64,000 bases of DNA, from positions 832,001 to 896,000 of the forward strand of contig OZ246423.1 of the NCBI GenBank assembly GCA_965231215.1, given 5' to 3'. Below are positions 8,672 to 40,301 of this stretch, one piece after another. Position 1 is the first letter of the stretch; every line of letters starts with the position of its first letter. The notes beneath the pieces are model-generated. The model did no database searches. It was given only the letters and a program-made list of their open reading frames with translations, and was not told the origin of the DNA. This DNA comes from Candidatus Altimarinota bacterium. Lineage in GTDB: Bacteria > Patescibacteriota > Gracilibacteria > UBA4473. The position numbers and the translations under genes were made by a program.

Positions 8672-11338
8672 ATGTCCGAAGAAGAAAACGCGAATCTTGA
8701 AGGGGCTGAGGCCCCTGAAAATAACGAAGAAAATACCCCTGAAAATACAGAAGTTGAAAGCGAAGAAGCAAGGGCTTCCACTCAACAGCTTACATTTACT
8801 GAATCAGATGGCCATATTACACAGAAAGGGCTGATTCCTGAAATTGAGGAGTCTTATTTGTCCTATGCCATGTCTGTAATTGTTTCGCGGGCGTTGCCAG
8901 ATGTGCGTGATGGATTAAAACCAGTACATCGAAGAATTCTTTATGCCATGCATGAAAATGGCCTTCGAGCTGGAGCCAAGTACCGAAAGTCAGCTAACGT
9001 CGTTGGGGCGGTGCTGGGGAAATATCATCCACATGGAGACACGGCTGTATATGACTCCATGGTGCGAATGGCTCAAGACTTTTCACTTCGATATCCACTG
9101 GTAGATGGGCAGGGAAACTTTGGCTCTATCGATGGGGATAATGCTGCAGCTATGCGTTATACAGAGGCTCGAATGACTCGAGTTTCTGAACTCATGCTGG
9201 AAGATATTGAAAAGAAAACAGTAGATTTTAGAGATAATTATGATGCGACGGCTCAAGAGCCAAGTGTGTTACCGAGTGTGGTGCCACAGCTTTTGCTTAA
9301 CGGAACGATGGGGATTGCCGTTGGGATGGCTACCAACATTCCGCCACATAATCTAGGAGAAGTCATAGAGGCCACTTTGGCTTTGCTTAAAGACCCAGAA
9401 ACAACGATTGATCAACTCTTAGAGCATATCAAAGGGCCGGATTTCCCCACCGCAGGAGAAATTTATGACGGAGGCATTATTAAAGAAATGTACCACACGG
9501 GAAGAGGGGGCGTGATTATGAGAGCCAAAACTACAATTGAAGAACTCAAAGGCGGTAAAAATGCCATTATTGTAACCGAAATTCCGTACCAAGTGAACAA
9601 AGCCGAGCTGATCATCAAAATTGCAGATTTAGTTCGAGACAAAAAAATTATTGGAATTTCAGATCTTCGTGATGAATCTAACCGTGAAGGCATTCGCGTG
9701 GTTATTGAACTTAAAAAAGACGCCTTCCCGAAGAAAATTTTGAACCAACTCTTTAAAAATACGACCTTACAAAAAAGCTTTAACCTTAACATGATTGCCT
9801 TAGTGGATGGGATTCATCCACGATTACTCAATCTTAAACAAGTCCTTAGCTATTTCCTAGATCATCGGTTTGAAGTGATTGTGCGTCGGACTCAATTTGA
9901 ATTAGACGTAGCTGAAGCTAGAGCCCATATTCTGGAAGGTCTCAAAATTGCGCTTGATGATATTGATCGAGTCATTGAAACCATCAAGGCCTCTCCCACC
10001 AAAGAAGAAGCCGGAGAAGCTTTACAGAAAAAATTTGGTCTTTCTGAGCTTCAAGCCAAAGCGATTTTAGAAATGAGACTTCAGACGCTGGCCGGACTTG
10101 AACGACAAAAAATTGAAGACGAACTTGCTGAAAAGCTAAAACTCATCCAAGCGCTTAAATCTATTCTTGAAGACAAAACCAAGCAAGCCGACATTATCGA
10201 AAAAGAATTACTACACGCTAAAGATAAATTTGGAGACAAAAGAAAAACACTCGTGCACGCTCATGGACTTGGTAAATTTAGTGCCAAAGACACCATCCCA
10301 GATGAGGAAATGTTGACCGTGTTGACCGAACAAAACTACATTAAACGAATGAGCCCCAGCAACTTCCGAGCTCAGCGACGTGGGGGAGTCGGAGTCAAAG
10401 GTGCCCAGACCAAAGAAGAAGATATTATTGCCAAATCCGTGTATGGAACTAATCACAATGACTTGCTGTTTTTTACTAACTTTGGACGGGTGTTCTCACT
10501 GCCAATGTATGAAATTCCGGAAGCATCACGAACCGCTAAAGGCACTCCTGTAATTAATTTACTTCAACTTCAACCGGAAGAAAAAGTGACTGAAATTCTA
10601 AATCTCAGCCGATCAGAAGGCAAATACATTGTAATGTGCACCACTGGTGGAACTATCAAAAAAACAGATCTAGAACTCTTCAAAAATATCCGAAGAAGTG
10701 GCCTTATTGCCTGTGGAGTAAAAGAAGGCGAAACGCTGCAATGGGCACGAATGTCTACGGGTGAAGACGATATCTTTGTCGTAACTCATGAAGGGAAATC
10801 GATCCGATTTAATGAAGGCGATGTTCGAGCCATGGGACGAGCCGCCGCTGGAGTACGAGGAATCAGACTCAAAGGAAAAGATCATGTAATCCAAATGGAC
10901 ATTCTTAAAAGTGACGAGGCCAGGCTCCTCACCGTTATGGAAAATGGACTTGGGAAAATGTCGGCTGTATCTGAGTACCGAAACCAATCACGGGGTGGCG
11001 CTGGAGTAAAAGTAGCGAACATCACTAAAAAAACAGGGAAAGTGGCTGGAGCCAGAGTGATTGGATCAGAGGCCAAAGGCGATCTTCTTATCGTCACACA
11101 AAACGGACAAACACTACGAACCCCACTTGAAGGGATTAAAACAGCCGGTCGCGCTACTCAAGGAGTAATTTTGATGAAATCTAAAGACGATACAGTGTCT
11201 TCTATTTCAATTATTCACGAAGAAGACCCAAACAAAAAAGAGCCTGAAGCGCCAAAAGCAGAATCGAAAGACACTCAACCACAACTTGAAATAAACAACT
11301 ATCAAGACGAAAACACCGATGAAGCCGATAAAAGTTAA
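8672..11338 (+). CDS. gyrA: DNA gyrase subunit A
   Basis: [29 protein letters not shown]; GyrA-box-like QRRGGVG. Confidence 0.98.
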
Positions 11339-12353
11339 GGTGCCAGCCAAACCAAGCGAGTATGAAATTGCCTTTCATGATTCCTTTGGGGCACTTGTAA
11401 AAACGCTGAGGGCACAAATTGGAGACCGGAAATTTATTATTGTTTCTGATCACAATGTGATAGAAAAAACAGCTTTTTTTGCTAAAGATTTAGATCTGGA
11501 TGACACAATATTGGTTTCACTTAAACCCGGAGAAACAGAGAAAAATTGGGAGTCCATTGATCATATCCTTCATTCGGCTTTTGATGCGGGACTTGATCGA
11601 GGGAGTGTGATGGTCGCAGTAGGAGGAGGCGTTATTGGCGATATGACGGGGTTTGCCGCGAGTATTTTTATGCGTGGAATTCCGTTTATTCAGGTGCCTA
11701 CCACTTTGTTGGCCATGGTAGACGCCTCAATTGGGGGAAAAACAGGGATTGATTGTCAGTATGGAAAAAACCTCATTGGAGCCATTCAACAACCAGAGGC
11801 GGTGATGGTTTGTCCTAAATTTTTAGAGACCCTGCCTGAAATTGAAATTAAAAACGGTTTAGCGGAAATGGTAAAACACGGTGTGGTCGCTGATAAAAAA
11901 CATTTTGAAGATTTAGAAAAGCTGGCTCAAGAAGATTTTAGTACGATTCGTTCCAAGATTTTTGATTATGCTCCGGCTTCAATCAATATCAAAAAAACCA
12001 TAGTAGAATCAGATGAAAAAGAATCTGGAAAACGAAAATTCCTCAATTTTGGACACACCTTTGGACACGCTATTGAGCTATGTTCCAATTTTGAAATTCC
12101 TCATGGACGGGCGGTAGCGATTGGCTGCGTTATGGCCTCTCAGTACGCCTATGAACACGGGTTGTGTGAGGATGAAACCGTAGATCGAATCGAAAACATT
12201 TTCAATCAGTTTGAAGTAGATCTCACCTGTGAGATTTCGGAAGCAGATATTTGGAACGCAATGAGCCGCGACAAGAAAAAATTTGGCTCTACACTCACGC
12301 TTATTCTTCCCAAAAAGATTGGAGAAGTAGATTATTTTAAGGTTGAAGTTTGA
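11319..12353 (+). CDS. aroB: 3-dehydroquinate synthase
   Basis: [44 protein letters not shown]. Confidence 0.95.
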
Positions 12354-12378
12354 CATAAAAAGTTAACTTCCCTAGGCT
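12350..12378 (+). promoter_or_regulatory. Sigma70-type promoter for the leader-ppcA-aspC transcript
   Basis: TTGACA (12350-12355), 17-bp spacer, TAGGCT (12373-12378). Confidence 0.6.
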
Positions 12379-12388
12379 TAGCAAGCGC

Positions 12389-12448
12389 ATGTTTTTAACC
12401 AATATTAAAACCGCAAATAATAATCGAAATGTGTTTCGAGCGGTTTAG
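12389..12448 (+). CDS. Putative attenuator leader peptide MFLTNIKTANNNRNVFRAV
   Basis: 19-codon ORF with five AAT (Asn) codons, four of them within codons 10-14, overlapping alternative RNA stems. Confidence 0.65.
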   Translation: MFLTNIKTANNNRNVFRAV

Positions 12449-12480
12449 TTGATGCGTTAAAATTTTTTACCTCTTCACCC

Positions 12481-12506
12481 ACCGCTCAAACAGAAGCGGC
12501 TTTTTT
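12481..12506 (+). terminator. Attenuator terminator hairpin immediately before ppcA
   Basis: CCGCT-caaacaga-AGCGG followed by CTTTTTT, ending 3 nt before the ppcA ATG. Confidence 0.65.
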
Positions 12507-12509
12507 CAC

Positions 12510-14024
12510 ATGGCTCACAGACACATACCGGCAACGATGGCAACTCAACATCCAGACAATAGTTTTCCCTCTGTTTTTACAGGTAGTGCATTTGTCTCTA
12601 GCCGAGAAGAAATAGATGAATGTTATGAATGTTTTGATTCTCTGGGAGTAGAAGAGTACATGTGGGATTGGGAAGGAAAGTTTGTAGATGAAGCCGTTAT
12701 GGAGCGGCTTTTTACCCAATACCATGACTATTTTAAACAAAACGCCATTGGAAAAGATAAATTTCTGACCTTTAGAATCCCTAATATTTGGGAAGAACCT
12801 TCAGCTAAATTGCCGCGTGCTTTTATGAATTTAGTATCAGCCGAACAAGCGGCTAAAAACTATGGCATGCACAGACCCCCATTGTTTGAAGTGATTCAGC
12901 CAATGACCACGTCCAGTGAACAGCTCAAATACCTTCAACAAAAATTTACCCAAATTGCGGAAAGTACCTCTGATATTTTTGAACTCAAACAACACCTCAA
13001 ACATGTGGAGCTTATCCCCCTGTTTGAAGCGATTGAAAGTATGGCTGAGTCGGACCAAATTTTGGGGGAGTATGTTGACTTTATGGAGTCGGAATATGAT
13101 TACACTCCTGAATATTTGAGAGTGTTTATTGCTCGATCAGATCCAGCGATGAATGCCGGCATCATTCCAACCATGCTAGCGGTAAAACATTCACTTTCTA
13201 GCTATCATGAATTTGGTAAATCTAGGGGGATTGAAATTTATCCCTGGATTGGAGGAGGCAGTCTGCCCTTCCGAGGCGGTATTAACCCCGATAATGTAGA
13301 ACCAACTCTAGAAGAATACAGAGGAACCGCTTCGGTCACTATTCAATCGGCTTTCCGGTTTGATTATGAGTTTAACAGGGTAAAAAAAGCTATTGATACC
13401 TTTAATAAACGTCTCCCTGAAATGCGAACTACTTATAGAAAAGTAACACCGGTAGAAGGCCAAGTGATTAAAAAATTTAATGCTCAAGCCAAAACCTATT
13501 TTACAGAAGTGATAGAACCTATGGCTGATTTAATTAACCAGGTGGCGGGTACCCTCCCAAATAATCGAGAAAGGGTGCAACACGTGGGAATCTTTGGATA
13601 CGCACGTGGCGTGGGGAAAGTAAAACTGCCTCGAGCCATAAAATTCTGTGGAGCCTTTTATAGCTTAGGGATTCCGCCAGAACTTATTGGCACTGGTAGA
13701 GCGCTCAAATTGGCTCAAGAAACGGGATGCTTGGATTTGGTTTTGGATTTATATAAAAACATTAAAGCAGATCTCATTCATGCCGGGCATTACCTGAATC
13801 GTGAAAATTTGGAACTAGTAGCTAAGTCGTATGATGCGGCGAAACTTATCCTCCAAGATATTGAACTCATTGAGGAAATCTTAAATATAAACATTGGCCC
13901 AGAATCAGAGAAGCACCTGATTCACCGCAACATAGCCTCAAACATCTATCACAAATTGAATCTAGATTATGACCTTGAGTTTGATCTATTAGAGGCGGCT
14001 AAAATTAGACAATCTATTGGTTAA
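12510..14024 (+). CDS. ppcA: Archaeal-type phosphoenolpyruvate carboxylase
   Basis: IPATMATQHPDN, EYMWDWEGK, RVFIARSDPA, GSLPFRGG, LPRAI; about 500 aa. Confidence 0.92.
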   Translation: MAHRHIPATMATQHPDNSFPSVFTGSAFVSSREEIDECYECFDSLGVEEYMWDWEGKFVDEAVMERLFTQYHDYFKQNAIGKDKFLTFRIPNIWEEPSAKLPRAFMNLVSAEQAAKNYGMHRPPLFEVIQPMTTSSEQLKYLQQKFTQIAESTSDIFELKQHLKHVELIPLFEAIESMAESDQILGEYVDFMESEYDYTPEYLRVFIARSDPAMNAGIIPTMLAVKHSLSSYHEFGKSRGIEIYPWIGGGSLPFRGGINPDNVEPTLEEYRGTASVTIQSAFRFDYEFNRVKKAIDTFNKRLPEMRTTYRKVTPVEGQVIKKFNAQAKTYFTEVIEPMADLINQVAGTLPNNRERVQHVGIFGYARGVGKVKLPRAIKFCGAFYSLGIPPELIGTGRALKLAQETGCLDLVLDLYKNIKADLIHAGHYLNRENLELVAKSYDAAKLILQDIELIEEILNINIGPESEKHLIHRNIASNIYHKLNLDYDLEFDLLEAAKIRQSIG

Positions 14025-14035
14025 CCCCTAGAAAT

Positions 14036-15178
14036 ATGTTTGATAAAAACCTGACATCGCTCCCAATGGACCCTATTTTTAAAGTGGTTAAAGCGCATAA
14101 AGATGATCCCCGTTCTGAAAAGGTTAATTTGGGGATCGGTATTTATCGGGACACAGAAGGGGCTCCCTTTGTTTTTAAATCCGTTCAAGAAGCCGCTCGT
14201 CGGGTATTAGTGGATAATTTTGAGTATGACACTATGCAGGGGAGCGCTTCTTTCTTAGAAATGGCTACCAACTGGGTGCTTGGAGAGGGCTCCTTTGCCT
14301 ATACAGCCGTACAACAATCAATTGGCGGAACTCACGCCTTGCGCCTGGTTGCAGAGTTTTTTGAAGCCCAAAAATCTAAGCCCAAGCTACTGGTTGGAAC
14401 GCCTACCTGGTCAAACCACTTTGATGTGTTTGGGGCTTTTGAAGCCGTCACTTTTGATCATTTAACTTCGGATTATCGGCTTAATGTTGAGGCTTATCTG
14501 ACCGCTATAAAATCGAATCCTCAGTCTTGTTTAATTCTCCATGGCGGAGCAACCCATAATCCGACGGGAATAAATCTGAGTGTAGCAGATTTAGACCAAA
14601 TATTAATAGCGGCTAATGAGGCCGAAGTTTTTGTAATTATTGATGCGGCTTATATAGGATTTGGAGAGGGATTAGAAGCCGATATAAATTGGGTTCGTCG
14701 CGCTTTTGAGGCTTGTAATCAAGGCACTTTGGCGATTTCTTTTTCAAAAAACGCTTCTCTGTATAACCAGCGTTTGGGACTTCTTTGTTGGAAAACTGAG
14801 ACGGCTCAATTAAAAAGGGTTCTAGAGTCTCATTTGCAGCAATTAGTTCGAGCGACGATTTCAAATTTACCAGCCTACGGTGCGGCTATAATGGAGCAGG
14901 TGCTTCGTGATAATCGAGCACAATGGATTGAGGAATTAGAGCAAGTGCGTCTTGATGTAAACGAGCGCAGAGTTCGGCTTGTGGAGATGATTCCCGATAC
15001 TTTTAATTTTTTGATCAATACAAAAGGACTTTTTGGATTGAGTGGGTTAACCCCTCTGCAAGTTAAAAAACTTAGGACGGATTCAGCGATCTATATGCCG
15101 CCAAATGGGCGAATAAATTTTGCGAGTATTCGTACCCAAGATTTTGAAGTTTTAGGAAAAGCCCTAAGGGAGGCTTGA
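14036..15178 (+). CDS. aspC: Aspartate/aromatic aminotransferase (class I)
   Basis: KVNLGIGIYR, HNPTG, DAAYIGF, SFSKN (PLP lysine), GRIN. Confidence 0.88.
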   Translation: MFDKNLTSLPMDPIFKVVKAHKDDPRSEKVNLGIGIYRDTEGAPFVFKSVQEAARRVLVDNFEYDTMQGSASFLEMATNWVLGEGSFAYTAVQQSIGGTHALRLVAEFFEAQKSKPKLLVGTPTWSNHFDVFGAFEAVTFDHLTSDYRLNVEAYLTAIKSNPQSCLILHGGATHNPTGINLSVADLDQILIAANEAEVFVIIDAAYIGFGEGLEADINWVRRAFEACNQGTLAISFSKNASLYNQRLGLLCWKTETAQLKRVLESHLQQLVRATISNLPAYGAAIMEQVLRDNRAQWIEELEQVRLDVNERRVRLVEMIPDTFNFLINTKGLFGLSGLTPLQVKKLRTDSAIYMPPNGRINFASIRTQDFEVLGKALREA

Positions 15179-15365: not shown

Positions 15366-16019
15366 TTAGTTAAATTTTTGAACTTCAAAGCAAGACCTGA
15401 GGGTGTCAAAAACCAGCTGTAAGTCTTTTTCTTCAATAAAAAAAATAAGCTCAGTAAAAGTTGAAGAGAGCTCAATCACATTCACTTTTTGGATCATGAG
15501 TTTCTGCATAATGAGGTAGAACAATCCCGGTTCATAAAAGTAGTGTTCGTCGAACTTTACGGAAACGGCGGTGATATGTTCGTTTTTGTACTTGGGCTTA
15601 TCTCGGACAATATTTCCAATGACTGACTTAAACTTTTTATTAAAGAATATCGTTATTTCACTGGTACTTTCACTATAAACAAAGTATTCCCGTTGTTTTT
15701 GAATCGCATTATAAGCGAGGTTGATGCACTCATGGTTTTGATTAGATTTCTCGTAGGTGTGCGTTATGAGGTTGTGTTGGATTGAAAGGGTCTCAATTTC
15801 GAAGCTTTCTCCAATAGTAATATCGGCTTGTATTTTTTTTTGTAGTCGAGAGAGGGCCATAACCAGAGCGGTTTTATGTATAGGTTTTTCTAACCGAACT
15901 TCTAAGATCGGTTTTATGAATTTAGCCATTTCACTCAGATTGTAGAGCCTGTGAGCGAGCCCAAATTGAAGGAAAGGGTTACCGTAAACGATTTGCTCTA
16001 AAGCGTCAGAAGTTTTCAT
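15366..16019 (-). CDS. Helical-N-terminus plus ACT-domain protein, a putative amino-acid-sensing regulator (family often labelled aspartate kinase, but no kinase domain)
   Basis: NPFLQFGL...NLSEMAKFI...ALVMALSR N-terminus; ACT-like PGLFYLI...VNVIELSSTFTELIFFI. Confidence 0.65.
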   Translation of the reverse strand: MKTSDALEQIVYGNPFLQFGLAHRLYNLSEMAKFIKPILEVRLEKPIHKTALVMALSRLQKKIQADITIGESFEIETLSIQHNLITHTYEKSNQNHECINLAYNAIQKQREYFVYSESTSEITIFFNKKFKSVIGNIVRDKPKYKNEHITAVSVKFDEHYFYEPGLFYLIMQKLMIQKVNVIELSSTFTELIFFIEEKDLQLVFDTLRSCFEVQKFN

Positions 16020-16128
16020 TTGTTTTATTTATAACAAAATTTGTTAAAAAAACACTTTTTTATTCAACTTTTATTTTTATTTTTTTTTGAGCTTTATAAA
16101 CGAGCCATACTTTTTAACTTTTTTAATT

Positions 16129-17292
16129 ATGCAGTTTTTGCACCACCGGCTTTCGACATCCACTAATGCACGGTGGATTAAAAAATTAGAACTGGGTGAT
16201 TTTGAGGGTTTAACTGAAGGAGCAGATATGCCGACTTTAGCAGAGGCTCCTCTTGAAGACCTAGAAGCTTTAGGGGAATCCCTCTTGGCACAAACCCGTG
16301 ATCGAGAGGCTAGAGGAGAATCTTTGTTACCGGTCAATCCAAACTTGCCGAGTGTCATGCCCGCTTTGCCGACTATGTTTACGGAAGACAATCGTTTGAA
16401 TCTTCCGGCTCAAGCGGACTTAATGCGTGAGCTTGTCGGGCAGGGTATCCAAGGGTTTGTCATTATGGGGACGACGGGAGAGAGCTCCCTGGTGAGCTTT
16501 GAAGAACATCAAGCAGCGGTCGCTCATGCGGTTCAGACGGCTCGAAAAATCGAAGCAGAGACGGGGCAATCAATCTCGATTGTAGCGGGAAGCGGAGCCA
16601 ACTGGACCGCTGAGCAACACCACTTATCAAGAACGGCTATTGAGTCAGGAGCTCAAGCAAACTTGCTTTTGCCGCCTTACTACATTAGAGAGCAGTCACC
16701 AGGCAATATGCTTCGCCACTTTTGGGAGGCTCTGGATGAAGGCCCTGGAATTGTCTATCGGGTTCAGGCGAGAAGTGGGCGAGCCGTTCCTTCTGAAATA
16801 ATTGAACAGCTGATGCTCCATCCTAATTTCTTAGGGATTAAAGAATGTGATGGGCAAGTCAGAGACTTGGCTCGTATGTTTGAAAATTCAGATCGTAATT
16901 TAAGAGTCTGGTCTGGAGAAGATGGAGAAGTGGTTCGTGATAGAAGTCAGGGAGCTTATGGAAGCATTTCGGTTACAGCGAATATGCATCCAGAATTGGT
17001 TCTTACGGCCAATGATATTGACCAAACCACCTATGCAGCGGATAGAACTGCTGAAAGAATCACGGCATTGCTCTTTCATTCCCAAATTGGAAGTCCTAGC
17101 TTGGTTCATTCTGCTCGAGAGATGCAGAGAGACCCAGAATTGATGAGAGGCTTTAGAGCCCCCTGTCGAGCGATTCTGAATGCTCAAAGAGCGTGGTTGA
17201 TTAGCGGGCTTCATCAAGTAGGGGTTACGGGCTTACGAAATTTTGAAGATGATAGAGCTATTAATTTTTTAAGACACTTAGAAAATGACTAA
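16129..17292 (+). CDS. dapA: Divergent dihydrodipicolinate synthase with N-terminal extension (alternative start 16228)
   Basis: GTTGE, PPYY, catalytic Tyr in IVYRV, Arg in ARSG, Schiff-base Lys in GIKE, SGED. Confidence 0.75.
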   Translation: MQFLHHRLSTSTNARWIKKLELGDFEGLTEGADMPTLAEAPLEDLEALGESLLAQTRDREARGESLLPVNPNLPSVMPALPTMFTEDNRLNLPAQADLMRELVGQGIQGFVIMGTTGESSLVSFEEHQAAVAHAVQTARKIEAETGQSISIVAGSGANWTAEQHHLSRTAIESGAQANLLLPPYYIREQSPGNMLRHFWEALDEGPGIVYRVQARSGRAVPSEIIEQLMLHPNFLGIKECDGQVRDLARMFENSDRNLRVWSGEDGEVVRDRSQGAYGSISVTANMHPELVLTANDIDQTTYAADRTAERITALLFHSQIGSPSLVHSAREMQRDPELMRGFRAPCRAILNAQRAWLISGLHQVGVTGLRNFEDDRAINFLRHLEND

Positions 17293-18019
17293 TTTACTAC
17301 TTGGTTATCGAGAAAGCGCCCCAGAACCGGGGCGCTTAGCGTCTTCACTTTTGGAAGGCGTTTCAGATTTGGATTTGGTTGAAGATCTGACAGGTCAAAA
17401 TCCTGAAGGCGTTTCATCGGTTGTTTATGCTCGGAAATCAGCCCAATCTATGTCAGCGGCTATTGATTTTTGTCAGCGAAATGGGATGCCTCTGATTAAT
17501 CTATCAACAGGATTTAGTCCCGAACTACCACCTCATTTAGATTTTTTGTGCCTTGAGTGTCCGAATGTATCGTTAGCAGTTTTGGATTTTATGGAACGGG
17601 TTCATCAAGCCTGCGCAGAAATGGATGTTCCTTTTCATCTAGATATTACGGAACATCATCAACGAGCCAAAAAGGATCGTTCTGGAACGGCTCAAAAAAT
17701 GCATGATCGAGCCTCAGAATTCGACCTTTGCCAAAACCCTCAAGGAGATTATTGTCAGCATATAATATCGGTCAGAGACGTATCAGAAACTCGTAAAAAT
17801 TTTGATATACCACCGGAGCATGAACAAGGATTTGCGATTCACGAAGCGACACTTGTCGCTGAAGGTGAAGAGGAGATATTACGTTCTTTTGATCCTTTAG
17901 TTATTTTAGGCCGACGAACCTATGCCGAAGGTTTGGCCTGGGTACTTGAGACTTTGTCGAGAATCGAGCCAATTACGGGGAAAGTTTCGATTACCGATTT
18001 TCGAGCACAGTACCGTTAA
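17285..18019 (+). CDS. dapB: Divergent dihydrodipicolinate reductase
   Basis: STG, PNVSL and EHHQRAKKDRSGTA motifs; overlaps the dapA stop. Confidence 0.65.
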   Translation: MTNLLLGYRESAPEPGRLASSLLEGVSDLDLVEDLTGQNPEGVSSVVYARKSAQSMSAAIDFCQRNGMPLINLSTGFSPELPPHLDFLCLECPNVSLAVLDFMERVHQACAEMDVPFHLDITEHHQRAKKDRSGTAQKMHDRASEFDLCQNPQGDYCQHIISVRDVSETRKNFDIPPEHEQGFAIHEATLVAEGEEEILRSFDPLVILGRRTYAEGLAWVLETLSRIEPITGKVSITDFRAQYR

Positions 18020-37664: not shown

Positions 37665-40301
37665 ATGTCTGAAGAAAACCATCTGATTACCGAACGAAAA
37701 GCTAAAATACAGGCCTGGAATGATCTAGGTTTTCCTGGGTATGCCAAAGATTTTGAACGCACTCACACAGCAGCTGAAGCCGTTGAAGACATAAAATCTA
37801 ATGAAGGCGCCTTGCGCGAGGCTCCAGCCATTATGGCTAAACCTCAGCAGGCTCGATCTATGGCCGGTCGTATTGTGGCGAGCCGTGAGATGGGGAAGTT
37901 GGCCTTCCTCAAAATTCGGGATGTATCAGGGAATTTTCAGATTTGTTTGGCCCAAGATTTATTAGGAGCTAATTTCAAAGCGTTATTAAAAGCGTTAGAT
38001 TTGGGAGATTACTGTGGTTTTGCCGGAGAGTTCTTCACGACCAAAAACGGAGAACCTACCCTTATGGCGGTGGAAGTGACGCCTCTTTCAAAGTCGCTAC
38101 GACCGCTGCCCGAAAAATGGCATGGATTAACAGACAAAGAACACTGTTACCGAGAAAGAAACTTAGATCTAATTTCAAATCAAGAATCATTTAAACGGTT
38201 TAAGATTCGGAGTGAAGTGGTAAAAGCCGTACGTAATTTTTATGAAGCACGGGACTTTATAGAAGTGGAAACCTCTATCTTGCAAGCTCAAGCTGGAGGC
38301 GCTATGGCCAAAACCTTTGAAACGCATCACAATGCCTTGGATCATAATTTTCATCTGCGGATTGCGCTAGAACTACCGCTCAAAATAGCCTGCTCAGGAG
38401 GATTTGAACGCATCTTTGAAATCGGAAAATGTTTTCGGAATGAAGGAACCGATCCGTCTCATTTGCAGGAATTTACCATGCTTGAATGGTATGCGGCCTA
38501 CGTCAGCTTTGAACAAAACATGGAATGGAATGAGCAAATGCTGCGTGAAATTGCGACCAAAGTTTTTGGCAAAACGGTTTTCACCGTCAAAGACAAAAAT
38601 GAAACAGATCATGAGATTGATTTTGAAAAGCCCTTCGCCAAGAAACGTTTTGCTGATCTACTCAAAGAGTACGCTGACTTTGATATGTTTAGCGCGAGTG
38701 ATGATGAGGTTCGGGCTAAAGCGGCGGAAGTAGGCGTGGAACAAATCGATGGAGTGGGACGAGCTAATTTGCTCGATGATATCTATAAAAAAACCGCTCG
38801 GCCAAATCTGATTCAGCCAACTTTTGTGTTAGATTACCCAGAAGATCTCAAACCTTTAGCTGCTCCAAACGGAGACGGAACGGCCAGCTGTTTCCAAGTG
38901 CTCATTGCCGGGTGGGAGGTGATTAATGCCTATGGAGAATTGATTGATCCACAAATCCAAAGAGCCTTGTTGGAAAAACAAGCCGAATTCAAAGCCAGTG
39001 GAGACGATGAAGCTATGGAGGTAGATGAAGTTTTTCTCAAAGCCATGGAACACGGATTCCCGCCAATGGCTGGGCAAGGAATGGGGATTGATAGAATTGT
39101 GACCCTGCTTACCGGACAAGACAATCTCCGAGAAGTAGTACTCTTCCCAACGATGCGTCCAGAAACGGGTAAACAAGATAAGGAAACCAAGCTCGCTACA
39201 GCTATTATCAATACCGATCTGATATCTGAAGACTGGCAGGCGCTCAACTCTGTGGGGCATCTGTGTGCGGCCTTTGGAGCGAGAGAAGGAAAATCTCTGT
39301 TCTATCAAGACGAAGTAGAAACCAAAGACGGAAAGACCATTAAACTTAACACCACTCAGGCCATTATGATTAAGGGATGTGACAAAAATCTATCCCTCAT
39401 TGACCTAGCTCAAAAAGCGAAAGCACAAGGATTGCAAGTAGCTGAATTTACCCGAGAAATGCTAGCAACATCAGATGACGCTAAAGTGGCCGAAATTACC
39501 AAAACTAAAAACCTATCTGAGATAGATTTTTACGGCATATTAGTATTTGGTAAAAAATCTGTAGTGGAGAATATGACTAAGGAGTTTGAACTATTAAGAA
39601 GCTTAGAAAATGCTTCCACTAGTCATCCCCATGAAGATGGGGATCCAGATAATAAGAATTCCGATTTAGAAGTAGATTCCCGTATGCACGGAAATGACAA
39701 TTCAGGAGGCGGTTTTGAAATTTTCGATGGAGAATTTGATAGGGATAAAGCTTGGAAGATGGTTAAGTCCCGATGTGATTGGGCCCTCCAAAGACACTTG
39801 GCTCATGTGGCGGTCAGTATGGAAGCTTTAGCGGTGCATCTAGGACACCAAGACCAAAAGGAAACCTGGTACTTAACGGGGCTGCTACATGATATTGACT
39901 GGAATCAAACTATTGAAACGCCAGAACTTCATTGTGGCGAACCTACCATGCAGTACCTGGAAGCCAACGGAGTGCCAGAAGTAATCTACAGAGGAATTCA
40001 ATCTCATCACGAAATCTTTGATCTTCCAATAGATTCAGATCTGCGGAAAGGGCTTTTAGCCGTCGATGAAATCTCTGGATTTGCCGTAGCCGTAGCCCAA
40101 ATGCGCCCCACCAAAATGGAGGGAATTTCACCAAAATCCATTACCAAAAAAATGAAAGACAAGCAGTTTGCAGCTAGCGTAAGCCGTGAGCATATGAAAT
40201 ACTGTGAGCCTTATTTTAACATCCCCGTATCAGAATTTTTACAGATCCTCATTCCCGCCTGGGAGGCTATTGCTCAAGACTGGAAGTTAGTAGGCGAATA
40301 G
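37665..40301 (+). CDS. lysS: Class II lysyl-tRNA synthetase fused to DUF2000-like and HD-hydrolase domains
   Basis: LRPLPEKWHGL, FRNEG, GMGIDR...VVLFP; then WQALNSVGHL; then LLHDID...DEISG...RP. Confidence 0.92.
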   Translation: MSEENHLITERKAKIQAWNDLGFPGYAKDFERTHTAAEAVEDIKSNEGALREAPAIMAKPQQARSMAGRIVASREMGKLAFLKIRDVSGNFQICLAQDLLGANFKALLKALDLGDYCGFAGEFFTTKNGEPTLMAVEVTPLSKSLRPLPEKWHGLTDKEHCYRERNLDLISNQESFKRFKIRSEVVKAVRNFYEARDFIEVETSILQAQAGGAMAKTFETHHNALDHNFHLRIALELPLKIACSGGFERIFEIGKCFRNEGTDPSHLQEFTMLEWYAAYVSFEQNMEWNEQMLREIATKVFGKTVFTVKDKNETDHEIDFEKPFAKKRFADLLKEYADFDMFSASDDEVRAKAAEVGVEQIDGVGRANLLDDIYKKTARPNLIQPTFVLDYPEDLKPLAAPNGDGTASCFQVLIAGWEVINAYGELIDPQIQRALLEKQAEFKASGDDEAMEVDEVFLKAMEHGFPPMAGQGMGIDRIVTLLTGQDNLREVVLFPTMRPETGKQDKETKLATAIINTDLISEDWQALNSVGHLCAAFGAREGKSLFYQDEVETKDGKTIKLNTTQAIMIKGCDKNLSLIDLAQKAKAQGLQVAEFTREMLATSDDAKVAEITKTKNLSEIDFYGILVFGKKSVVENMTKEFELLRSLENASTSHPHEDGDPDNKNSDLEVDSRMHGNDNSGGGFEIFDGEFDRDKAWKMVKSRCDWALQRHLAHVAVSMEALAVHLGHQDQKETWYLTGLLHDIDWNQTIETPELHCGEPTMQYLEANGVPEVIYRGIQSHHEIFDLPIDSDLRKGLLAVDEISGFAVAVAQMRPTKMEGISPKSITKKMKDKQFAASVSREHMKYCEPYFNIPVSEFLQILIPAWEAIAQDWKLVGE
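39622..39698. repeat. Palindromic REP/RPE-like element lying in frame within lysS
   Basis: GTCATCCCCATGAAGATGGGGATCCA...TAGATTCCCGTATGCACGGAAATGAC. Confidence 0.75.

Follow-up and report, generated by a model that had tools for sequence, protein, structure and literature searches.

A candidate leader-peptide attenuator with asparagine codons upstream of ppcA in a Candidatus Altimarinota bacterium, and the leader family to which it probably belongs

Organization of the ppcA locus

The genome of the Candidatus Altimarinota bacterium analysed here (Patescibacteriota, Gracilibacteria; G000) consists of a single contig of 1.33 Mb and is 99% complete. A stretch of 64,000 nucleotides (nt) of this contig, further referred to as the window (G000:C1:832001-896000), contains the gene ppcA, coding for an archaeal-type phosphoenolpyruvate (PEP) carboxylase, in front of an aminotransferase gene. 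The spacer between ppcA and the preceding gene aroB contains a small open reading frame (ORF) with a run of asparagine codons, a putative promoter, and alternative RNA helices, and is the subject of this study. The genes at this locus, in window positions, are the following:

8672-11338, plus strand: gyrA, upstream of aroB
11319-12353, plus strand: aroB, 3-dehydroquinate synthase (Pfam DHQ_synthase and DHQS_C; NCBIfam aroB, 343.6 bits, cut-off 305)
12354-12509: aroB-ppcA spacer, 156 nt
12510-14024, plus strand: ppcA, archaeal-type PEP carboxylase of 504 amino acids (aa) (Pfam PEPcase_2, 445 bits; NCBIfam PEPCase_arch, 471.8 bits, cut-off 146)
14036-15178, plus strand: class I aminotransferase of the AspC/TyrB type, 380 aa (Pfam Aminotran_1_2), starting 11 nt past ppcA

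The aminotransferase gene had been labelled aspC in a preliminary description of this DNA. The AspC/TyrB type of the protein agrees with this label, but its top NCBIfam match (PRK09257, 296.4 bits) stays under the cut-off of 377, so that the more general name is used here. The elements read in and around the spacer, all on the plus strand, are:

12350-12355: -35 hexamer TTGACA, read from the sequence
12373-12378: -10 hexamer TAGGCT (TAnnnT), 17 nt past the -35 hexamer, with 10 nt separating it from the leader ATG
12389-12448: leader ORF MFLTNIKTANNNRNVFRAV, 19 codons, with stop codon TAG at 12446-12448
12408-12414: segment 1, AAACCGC, pairing with GCGGTTT at 12440-12446
12416-12430: cluster of regulatory codons AAT AAT AAT CGA AAT (codons 10-14), with an extra AAT (codon 5) at 12401-12403
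12433-12446: segment 2, GTTTCGAGCGGT(TT), 5' strand of the antiterminator, within the last leader codons
12449-12456: segment 2', TTGATGCG, a second complement to the terminator 5' arm CGCTCAA (12483-12489)
12481-12491: segment 3, ACCGCTCAAAC, common to the antiterminator and the terminator
12482-12499: terminator hairpin CCGCT-CAAACAGA-AGCGG, 5 base pairs (bp), 8-nt loop, -7.0 kcal/mol, from the terminator scan
12495-12499: segment 4, AGCGG, 3' arm of the terminator
12500-12506: a C and a T6 tract, with 3 nt between the end of the tract and the ppcA ATG at 12510

The promoter, the 19-codon ORF, its AAT codons (5, 10, 11, 12, and 14 of MFLTNIKTANNNRNVFRAV), segments 1 to 4, and the U-tract had all been proposed before, and reading of the sequence retrieved each of them at these positions. 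The stop codon of aroB (TGA; 12351-12353) falls inside the -35 hexamer. Nine of the 11 codons 4 to 14 encode residues derived from aspartate (Thr, Asn, Ile, and Lys). The 1:2 helix has an energy of -7.6 kcal/mol alone and of -11.8 kcal/mol when its inner hairpin (12424-12439) is included; the pairing of segment 1 belongs to the minimum-free-energy fold of the free leader. The 2:3 helix, formed by GTTT-c-GAGCGGT (12433-44) and ACCGCTCAAAC (12481-91), reaches -11.8 kcal/mol and excludes the terminator. Positions 12350-12509 probably represent a promoter and a ribosome-mediated transcription attenuator for the unit of ppcA and the AspC/TyrB-type aminotransferase gene, a reading to which a probability of roughly 0.7 is assigned. 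A leader-peptide attenuator with Asn codons, the candidate put forward in the preliminary description, is the most likely function of this spacer, and the support for it comes from cognate leaders elsewhere in the same genome and from a codon register shared with the leuA leader.

A family of cognate leaders in the genome and in its relatives

The genome was scanned for TTGACA (at most one mismatch), a spacing of 16 to 18 nt, TAnnnT, a further 4 to 14 nt, and an ATG opening an ORF of 5 to 45 codons. This gave 61 matches, seven of which were leaders whose enriched residue fits the next gene (valS, thrS, leuA, DAHP synthase, ilvB, a proB-like gene, and ppcA). In all seven, the ATG lies 10-13 nt past the -10 hexamer, and the spacing of the ppcA leader equals that of the valS and thrS leaders. 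The six other leaders are:

G000:C1:743618-743464, minus strand: valS leader MRQPFVVVVNV, TTGACA-17-TACATT, 77 nt before valS
G000:C1:655287-655442, plus strand: thrS leader MQNTTNTTTAKAG (TTNTTT); thrS by TIGR00418, 680 bits
G000:C1 ~1119310-1119143, minus strand: leuA leader MKNFSLLLLLTLEIRAV (LLLLL), before leuA
G000:C1:464143-464314, plus strand: DAHP synthase (aroFGH, aroG) leader MQKFFYGFFYFWFNRGLA (FFYGFFYFWF)
G000:C1:217437-217614, plus strand: leader MKNLIVVPAPRPPQN (PAPRPP) of a proB-like amino-acid kinase gene (65 bits, under the cut-off)
G000:C1:249697-249814, plus strand: ilvB leader MKKLLVVLVK, with a hairpin without U-tract; uncertain

The valS leader, which first surfaced in a list of small ORFs with clusters of the same residue, precedes a gene encoding a protein of 883 aa (Pfam tRNA-synt_1 and Val_tRNA-synt_C) and is followed by a switch of AAGCGAG, CTCGCT, and AGCGAG and by a T6 run. 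Similarly, T5-T9 runs follow the hairpin in the valS, thrS, leuA, aroG, and proB-like leaders. The shared format comprises a TTGACA-like -35 hexamer, 16-18 nt, TAnnnT, a start codon 7-13 nt further on, 10-20 codons, an antiterminator strand at the ORF end or just past it, and a hairpin with a T-run. The ppcA leader has this format as well (TTGACA-17-TAGGCT-10-ATG, 19 codons, segment 2 in the last five codons, and a hairpin with T6). None of the six other leader loci matched an Rfam family.

Two further candidate leaders were discarded, namely a Met-rich small ORF (genome position 636660, minus strand), of which the next gene encodes a Pyr_redox_2 protein and is not cognate, and MEMMEMEMMEMM... 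(near genome position 72455), which is contained in the 3' end of a long gene. An inspection of the 48 terminator-like sites at most 70 nt upstream of genes yielded no convincing new leader and recovered those of thrS, valS, and ppcA.

Comparable leaders were found in relatives. The loci considered were all 13 of leuA and, from 43 family genomes, the best 30 each of valS and thrS. A Val-run ORF was present at 7 of the 30 valS loci, those of all four other genomes of the genus included, and was followed by a terminator in all seven cases. A Thr-run ORF, with up to nine consecutive Thr codons, occurred at 19 of the 30 thrS loci (12 of them with a terminator), and a Leu-run ORF at 6 of the 13 leuA loci (4 with a terminator). 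Runs of non-cognate residues were rare at these loci; the single case with a terminator behind it was a Phe run at a thrS locus. In addition, 26 of the 32 cognate family leaders share the promoter form (TTGACA with at most one mismatch) and a start codon 7-13 nt after the -10 hexamer.

Covariation was assessed for 17 of the 19 Thr leaders (alignment A2), the two others having been dropped as a regular expression found no T5 run in them. The antiterminator had 79% of its alignment cells paired and 6 of 7 pairs changed on both sides, with a covariation score of 0.364 versus 0.215 for shuffled alignments (0 of 500 shuffles as high). The terminator had 73.5% of its cells paired, also with 6 of 7 pairs changed on both sides, and scored 0.300 versus 0.217 (4 of 500 shuffles as high). 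Every slid control scored lower, and the U-tracts were near-invariant across the 17 leaders. A family of predicted cognate leader-peptide attenuators is thus present in this genome and its relatives, as judged from sequence comparison.

Motifs resembling Shine-Dalgarno (SD) sites are depleted upstream of gene starts in G000, with 43 of 1053 starts (4.1%, the starts being rough longest-ORF calls) versus 9.5% at random positions, and the regions upstream of gene starts are A/T-rich. This depletion and the leader geometry indicate that the cognate leaders are probably translated from nearly leaderless mRNAs. Several thrS leaders of relatives begin with GTG 7 nt past the -10 hexamer and are therefore probably truly leaderless.

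Regarding the valS genes themselves, the valyl-tRNA synthetase (ValRS) match is split at residues ~473/484 inside a single frame of ~1050-1340 aa in most family genomes, the proteins of G000 and G004 being 883-912 aa (L183-L202 and others). Many relatives therefore appear to carry a ValRS insertion of ~200-450 aa, which could be an intein or an additional domain.

Similarity to the leuA leader

Counted back from the stop codon, the ppcA leader reads AAT AAT AAT CGA AAT GTG TTT CGA GCG GTT TAG, the leuA leader of G004 reads CTA CTC CTT CGA CTC GAA TAT CGA GCG GTT TAG, and that of G000 reads CTG CTG CTT ACT CTC GAA ATT CGA GCG GTT TAG. The AAT codons at -10, -9, -8, and -6 of the ppcA leader hence occupy the positions of the Leu codons in the leuA leaders. 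Furthermore, the last four codons (CGA GCG GTT TAG) are identical in the three leaders, and the CGA at -7 is common to the ppcA leader and the leuA leader of G004. The probability that two of seven leaders share their last 9 coding nt by chance is ~8e-5 over 21 pairs (4^-9 x 21).

The likeness extends to the promoter form, the ORF length, and the terminator arms. The leuA leader of G000 and its equivalents in G004, G003, and G002 have a promoter of the form TTGACN-16/17-TAnnnT, ~10 nt before the ATG, and 17-19 codons, with the 5' strand of the antiterminator in the last codons and with arms GCTC and GAGC(G)G followed by a T-run. The two leaders differ in their codons (AAT for Asn in the ppcA leader, CTN for Leu in the leuA leader), in their targets (ppcA and an aminotransferase gene versus leuA), in their terminators (5 bp and -7.0 kcal/mol versus at least 7 bp and -16.0 kcal/mol), and in their distribution, the ppcA leader being found in one genome and Leu-run leaders at 6 of 13 leuA loci. 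A BLAST comparison of the two leaders gave a match at 16 of 17 positions with an E-value of ~0.9, a short similarity that is not significant on its own. The case for paralogy rests on the shared codon register; on that basis, the ppcA and leuA leaders are likely paralogues.

Predicted switching of the ppcA leader

Leader folding was predicted under constraints, whereby the RNA was masked through the stop codon or through the stalled codon, in either case with a further 9 nt, the ribosome footprint being an assumed value. The free ppcA leader folded as the 1:2 hairpin plus the terminator (-24.8 kcal/mol). With a ribosome at the stop codon, the terminator was the sole remaining structure (-7.0 kcal/mol). 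A stall at codon 10 or at codon 14 led to alternative folds in which the 5' arm of the terminator was consumed (-17.9 and -9.8 kcal/mol, respectively), and segment 2' (TTGATGCG) took part in the pairing in both cases. The 1:2/2:3/3:4 alternative pairing suggested earlier is borne out by these folds, which switch as proposed, with helices of -11.8, -11.8, and -7.0 kcal/mol. The thrS, proB-like, and aroG leaders switched like the ppcA leader; the leuA fold switched only with a stall at the last Leu codon and the valS fold only with a stall at the first Val codon.

From this layout, the course of regulation at ppcA, including the transcription start, the translation of the leader, termination, and the amino acid sensed, is inferred as follows. 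Transcription would start a few nt before the leader ATG at 12389, making the leader nearly leaderless. When charged tRNA-Asn is ample, the ribosome would reach the stop codon TAG (12446-12448) and cover segments 2 and 2'; the CCGCT/AGCGG hairpin in front of the U-tract would then form, and RNA polymerase would terminate at ~12506. When Asn-tRNA(Asn) is scarce, the ribosome would stall on AAT codons 10-12 or 14, perhaps also on Thr, Ile, and Lys codons nearby, leaving segments 2 and 2' free to pair with the 5' arm of the terminator and allowing readthrough into ppcA. Without translation, the leader would fold on itself (1:2 helix and its extension), resulting in termination. Since 9 of the 11 codons 4-14 encode aspartate-derived residues, multivalent sensing of Asn together with Thr, Ile, and Lys is possible. 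Of the asparagine sensing proposed in the preliminary description, the AAT cluster is observed; that Asn is what the leader senses is presumed from the codons, among which Thr, Ile, and Lys codons occur too.

Alternatively, translation of the leader may refold the start region of ppcA with little true termination. The 3:4 hairpin and the U-tract are situated within ~28 nt of the ppcA ATG, the hairpin ending 11 nt and the U-tract 3 nt before it, and the hairpin is weak as a terminator, its region (12482-12506) sitting at the minimum of the scan criteria. Moreover, without SD sites (given their depletion in this genome), ppcA initiation should need open, A/U-rich RNA, and the ilvB leader of the same genome combines an ORF and a hairpin without a U-tract. 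Set against this, the ppcA hairpin is followed by T6, as the hairpins of the valS, thrS, leuA, aroG, and proB-like leaders are by their T-runs, and the near-invariant U-tracts of the 17 thrS leaders point to termination as the output of the family. Control at the level of ppcA translation is accordingly held to be quite improbable, and transcription attenuation is preferred.

Asn-tRNA supply

The link between asparagine codons and the genes downstream depends on how Asn-tRNA is made. A genome-wide search for asparaginyl-tRNA synthetase (AsnRS; asnS, TIGR00457) gave nothing over the cut-off, the two weak matches being the lysyl-tRNA synthetase (LysRS) and the bacterial aspartyl-tRNA synthetase (AspRS). 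Asn_synthase gave a marginal partial match (22.2 bits, in a 371-aa frame at 632010-632387). In contrast, gatB was present (506.8 bits; G000:C1:1218445-1219851), as were a bacterial-type AspRS gene (G000:C1:616507-618291) and one tRNA-Asn gene (anticodon GTT). Transamidation of Asp-tRNA(Asn) to Asn-tRNA by GatCAB is established biochemistry. Given that the searches retrieved GatB but neither an AsnRS nor a convincing AsnB, Asn-tRNA is most likely made by this transamidation route in the present strain. If Asn-tRNA is made from aspartate, Asn codons would report the aspartate supply from PEP carboxylase and the aminotransferase. The connection of Asn with the ppcA pathway would hence be indirect, running from aspartate over Asp-tRNA(Asn) to Asn-tRNA.

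Evidence against an attenuator at ppcA and competing explanations

Several observations weigh against the attenuator interpretation, a first group of which concerns the leader itself. The -10 hexamer TAGGCT matches TATAAT at 3 of 6 positions only, which is why the promoter was missed by the promoter scan and is absent from its list; of the promoter TTGACA-17-TAGGCT proposed in the preliminary description, the hexamers and their spacing are present, the -10 hexamer being a poor one. The terminator is the weakest of the leader set (-7.0 versus -9.1 to -16.0 kcal/mol), and the gap between U-tract and start codon is 3 nt for ppcA versus 14-25 nt in the other leaders, as read off the sequences. No Asp codon occurs in the ppcA leader, although the residue used by each of the other leaders is the one tied most directly to its gene. 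Also, the aminotransferase could be aromatic-specific rather than of the aspartate type, which is a weak point.

A second group concerns chance expectation. The best duplex between the 92 nt upstream and the terminator 5' arm (-14.1 kcal/mol) was matched by 2 of 2000 dinucleotide shuffles; in the genome, that duplex ranks 59th among 1646 terminator-like sites and 7th among the 237 intergenic ones. The fold of the whole leader is unremarkable (z = -1.69; 13 of 200 shuffles equally good). Among the terminator-like sites of the genome, those of 5 bp form the commonest class, and there is hardly any enrichment of such sites downstream of genes (1.30/kb in sense versus 0.97/kb in antisense orientation). 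A search of window positions 11800-13000 with Rfam models (cmscan, E-values up to 10) returned a single match, the unrelated StyR-143 (16.5 bits, gathering score 176, E = 1.4). No T-box was matched genome-wide among 51 candidates scored, and none in 11800-13000. Conversely, at least four Asn codons within five codons occurred in one of the 940 small intergenic ORFs of the genome, which is the ppcA leader. Taken alone, the sequence pattern before ppcA is real but only moderately unusual, and its weight comes from the genome context.

These figures bear on the explanation that the spacer is an ordinary one, in which the hairpin is a weak gyrA-aroB terminator or a chance hairpin, the ORF is a by-product of A/T-rich DNA, and ppcA is transcribed from another promoter (for instance TAAAAT at 12458-12463). 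The intergenic GC content of 35%, the occurrence of at least four of any one residue in five codons in 34 of the 940 small ORFs, the local number of terminator-like sites (12 found versus 11.4 expected from shuffles), the fold z-score, and the lack of conservation of the leader are all in line with it. An ordinary spacer would nonetheless have to match by chance the promoter spacing, the ORF length, the codon positions, the ORF end, and the helix layout of five to six cognate attenuators, and the sharing of the last 9 coding nt has the chance of ~8e-5 given above. This makes it the least probable of the alternatives considered.

A third group of contrary observations comes from the distribution of ppcA. 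The gene was found in 6 of 41 relatives and in 10 of the 43 family genomes (best identity 62%); a search of the four other same-genus genomes retrieved no ppcA. A scan of metagenomes retrieved 80 ppcA loci, the best one 78% identical, and a scan of genome contigs 63. The preliminary description had named absence of an Asn-rich upstream ORF from homologues as a reason to give up the attenuator, and indeed neither an Asn-run leader nor any residue run with a terminator was found at the 118 other non-redundant ppcA loci. The closest ppcA (L015, 78% identical) lies in the order prs, a 32-nt spacer, ppcA, and an aminotransferase gene, without a leader. An aspC-like gene occurs in 10 of the 43 family genomes, and none of the nine loci other than that of G000 carries an Asn leader; in the genomes of the same genus, the aminotransferase was not found. 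A DNA search with the ppcA leader gave no significant match in the own genome or in the genus, and the best foreign match (E = 0.006) was to an A/T-rich stretch outside any leader.

The regions downstream of aroB in the genomes of the same genus differ from the window and are without a leader, synteny breaking at that point. The patchy occurrence of ppcA and this broken synteny indicate that the ppcA module is situated in a variable region and is probably an acquisition. Since the genomes examined include no near relative with the aroB-ppcA junction, the absence of an orthologous leader is absence of data as much as counter-evidence. DNA contigs from three runs of one study were identical to the window where they covered it, and therefore provide no variants to test the stems.

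Given this history, the leader may be a non-regulatory or decaying copy of a leuA-type leader at the ppcA junction, supplying a promoter and a leaky terminator, with an incidental AAT run and no response to Asn-tRNA. The leader is unique to this genome, synteny breaks after aroB within the genus, the terminator and the -10 hexamer are the weakest of the leader set, and the likeness to leuA is confined to the ORF end and the terminator arms. Drift, however, is unlikely to yield four AAT codons at exactly -10, -9, -8, and -6 while the frame, the CGA, the ORF end, and the complementary helices are kept. The uniqueness of such an Asn cluster among the 940 small intergenic ORFs argues in the same direction, and the Asn, Thr, Ile, and Lys content suits an operon that produces aspartate. 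A relic of this kind is considered unlikely, and a functional attenuator remains the favoured explanation.

Other observations on the locus and the window

Further observations concern ppcA loci. A 1000-nt DNA contig (run X3, record 7) matches window positions 12183-12590 exactly and is preceded by 592 unrelated letters; the junction at 12183 may stem from an assembly artefact or from a rearrangement within aroB at the strain level. At the ppcA loci L004 (1236-1484) and L009, both of genus g3, ppcA is preceded at a distance of 13 nt by a small ORF of ~82 aa, where the window has aroB. In a subgroup of the Peribacteria (L019, L021, L102, L104, L105, L018/L103, and L065/L020/L107), a tRNA gene closely precedes ppcA, and the stretch between the two contains partial tRNA 3'-end repeats (GGGGTAAATCCCTCCCT...). 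A motif upstream of ppcA in this subgroup was considered as a riboswitch and rejected, as it consists of these repeats of the neighbouring tRNA gene 3' end, which look like integration scars and fit a location of ppcA on a mobile or variable segment. Apparent tRNA genes directly upstream of ppcA were also read by eye in L002, L097, L100, and L011.

Downstream of the aminotransferase gene, the window contains the following features:

15366-16019, minus strand: weak match to an ACT domain, 20.5 bits, under the cut-off
16087-17292, plus strand: DapA-like gene, under the cut-off
17285-18019, plus strand: weak match to DapB_C, under the cut-off

The LysRS gene of the window (37665-40301, plus strand) encodes 878 aa, of which residues 6-500 match LysRS, leaving a C-terminal extension of ~375 aa. 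At window position ~50969 (G000:C1:882969, minus strand), TTGACC-17-TAAAGT is followed after 4 nt by a 21-codon ORF (MICLKNTKFSLSHTLKTHVGP); a terminator-like hairpin lies 27 nt past this ORF. This ORF has no residue run and lies in a stretch without called genes; it could mark the beginning of a gene in a different frame that the annotation lacks.

Relation to known attenuators and significance

The classical enterobacterial attenuators (trp, his, thr, leu, ilv, and pheA) combine a short leader ORF, regulatory codons, 1:2/2:3/3:4 pairing, and an intrinsic terminator. Among these, thrL of Escherichia coli mixes Thr and Ile codons, is multivalent, and controls a pathway of the aspartate family. 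The ppcA leader resembles thrL in mixing Asn with Thr, Ile, and Lys codons and in its 1:2/2:3/3:4 layout. It differs from the classical attenuators in its Asn codons and in its target, an anaplerotic enzyme and an aminotransferase instead of a terminal biosynthetic operon. It further differs in being nearly leaderless, in belonging to an SD-less genome and to a host of the Candidate Phyla Radiation (CPR), and in matching no Rfam leader family. T-box riboswitches are the usual tRNA-sensing attenuators before aminoacyl-tRNA synthetase and amino-acid genes in the Firmicutes; like the proposed ppcA leader, they sense tRNA charging by a terminator/antiterminator switch, but they bind the tRNA directly and have no leader peptide.

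Leader-peptide attenuation is known mainly for terminal amino-acid operons and a few aminoacyl-tRNA synthetase genes in the Proteobacteria and Actinobacteria, and CPR bacteria are thought to have very little regulation. In the open-access literature, nothing was found on leader-peptide attenuation in the Patescibacteria or CPR, in agreement with what had been assumed in the preliminary description, nor anything linking it to PEP carboxylase or anything relevant on attenuators with asparagine codons. For the Actinobacteria, the abstract of Seliverstov et al. (2005; PMC1262725) reports predicted classical attenuators of trp operons, of trpS and leuS in Streptomyces, and of ilvB with leader peptides, some without components such as the terminator. 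As far as that abstract goes, these are comparable to the valS, thrS, and ilvB leaders of the present genome, being located outside the Proteobacteria and before aminoacyl-tRNA synthetase genes and ilvB; they differ in phylum and in their unrelated sequences, and the abstract names neither a leader with Asn codons nor a ppc target (PMC1262725).

The ppcA leader probably acts by classical attenuation; its codon specificity, its kind of target, and its phylum would be new, as would the near-leaderless format. As a tentative scenario, to which slightly less than even odds are given, a leuA-type leader of this Peribacteria genus was duplicated or copied before a horizontally acquired ppcA-aminotransferase module and its Leu codons were recoded to AAT at exactly the regulatory positions. 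The resulting Asn sensor would effectively measure aspartate supply and tune the entry of anaplerotic carbon, and would belong to a regulon of leaderless leader-peptide attenuators found throughout this lineage of a CPR family (valS, thrS, leuA, aroG, proB-like, and perhaps ilvB).

If the ppcA attenuator is real, CPR bacteria would run a family of tRNA-charging sensors on nearly leaderless, SD-less mRNAs, and both the Asn-codon specificity and an anaplerotic target feeding the aspartate family would be new for attenuation. The codon likeness of the ppcA and leuA leaders would then offer a rare view of the reprogramming of an attenuator for an acquired module. In addition, the conserved thrS and valS leaders constitute a data set for covariance models and for surveys of CPR genomes. 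More generally, a lineage-wide regulon of this kind would mean that minimal, SD-less, and probably symbiotic bacteria regulate their amino-acid supply by coupled transcription and translation.

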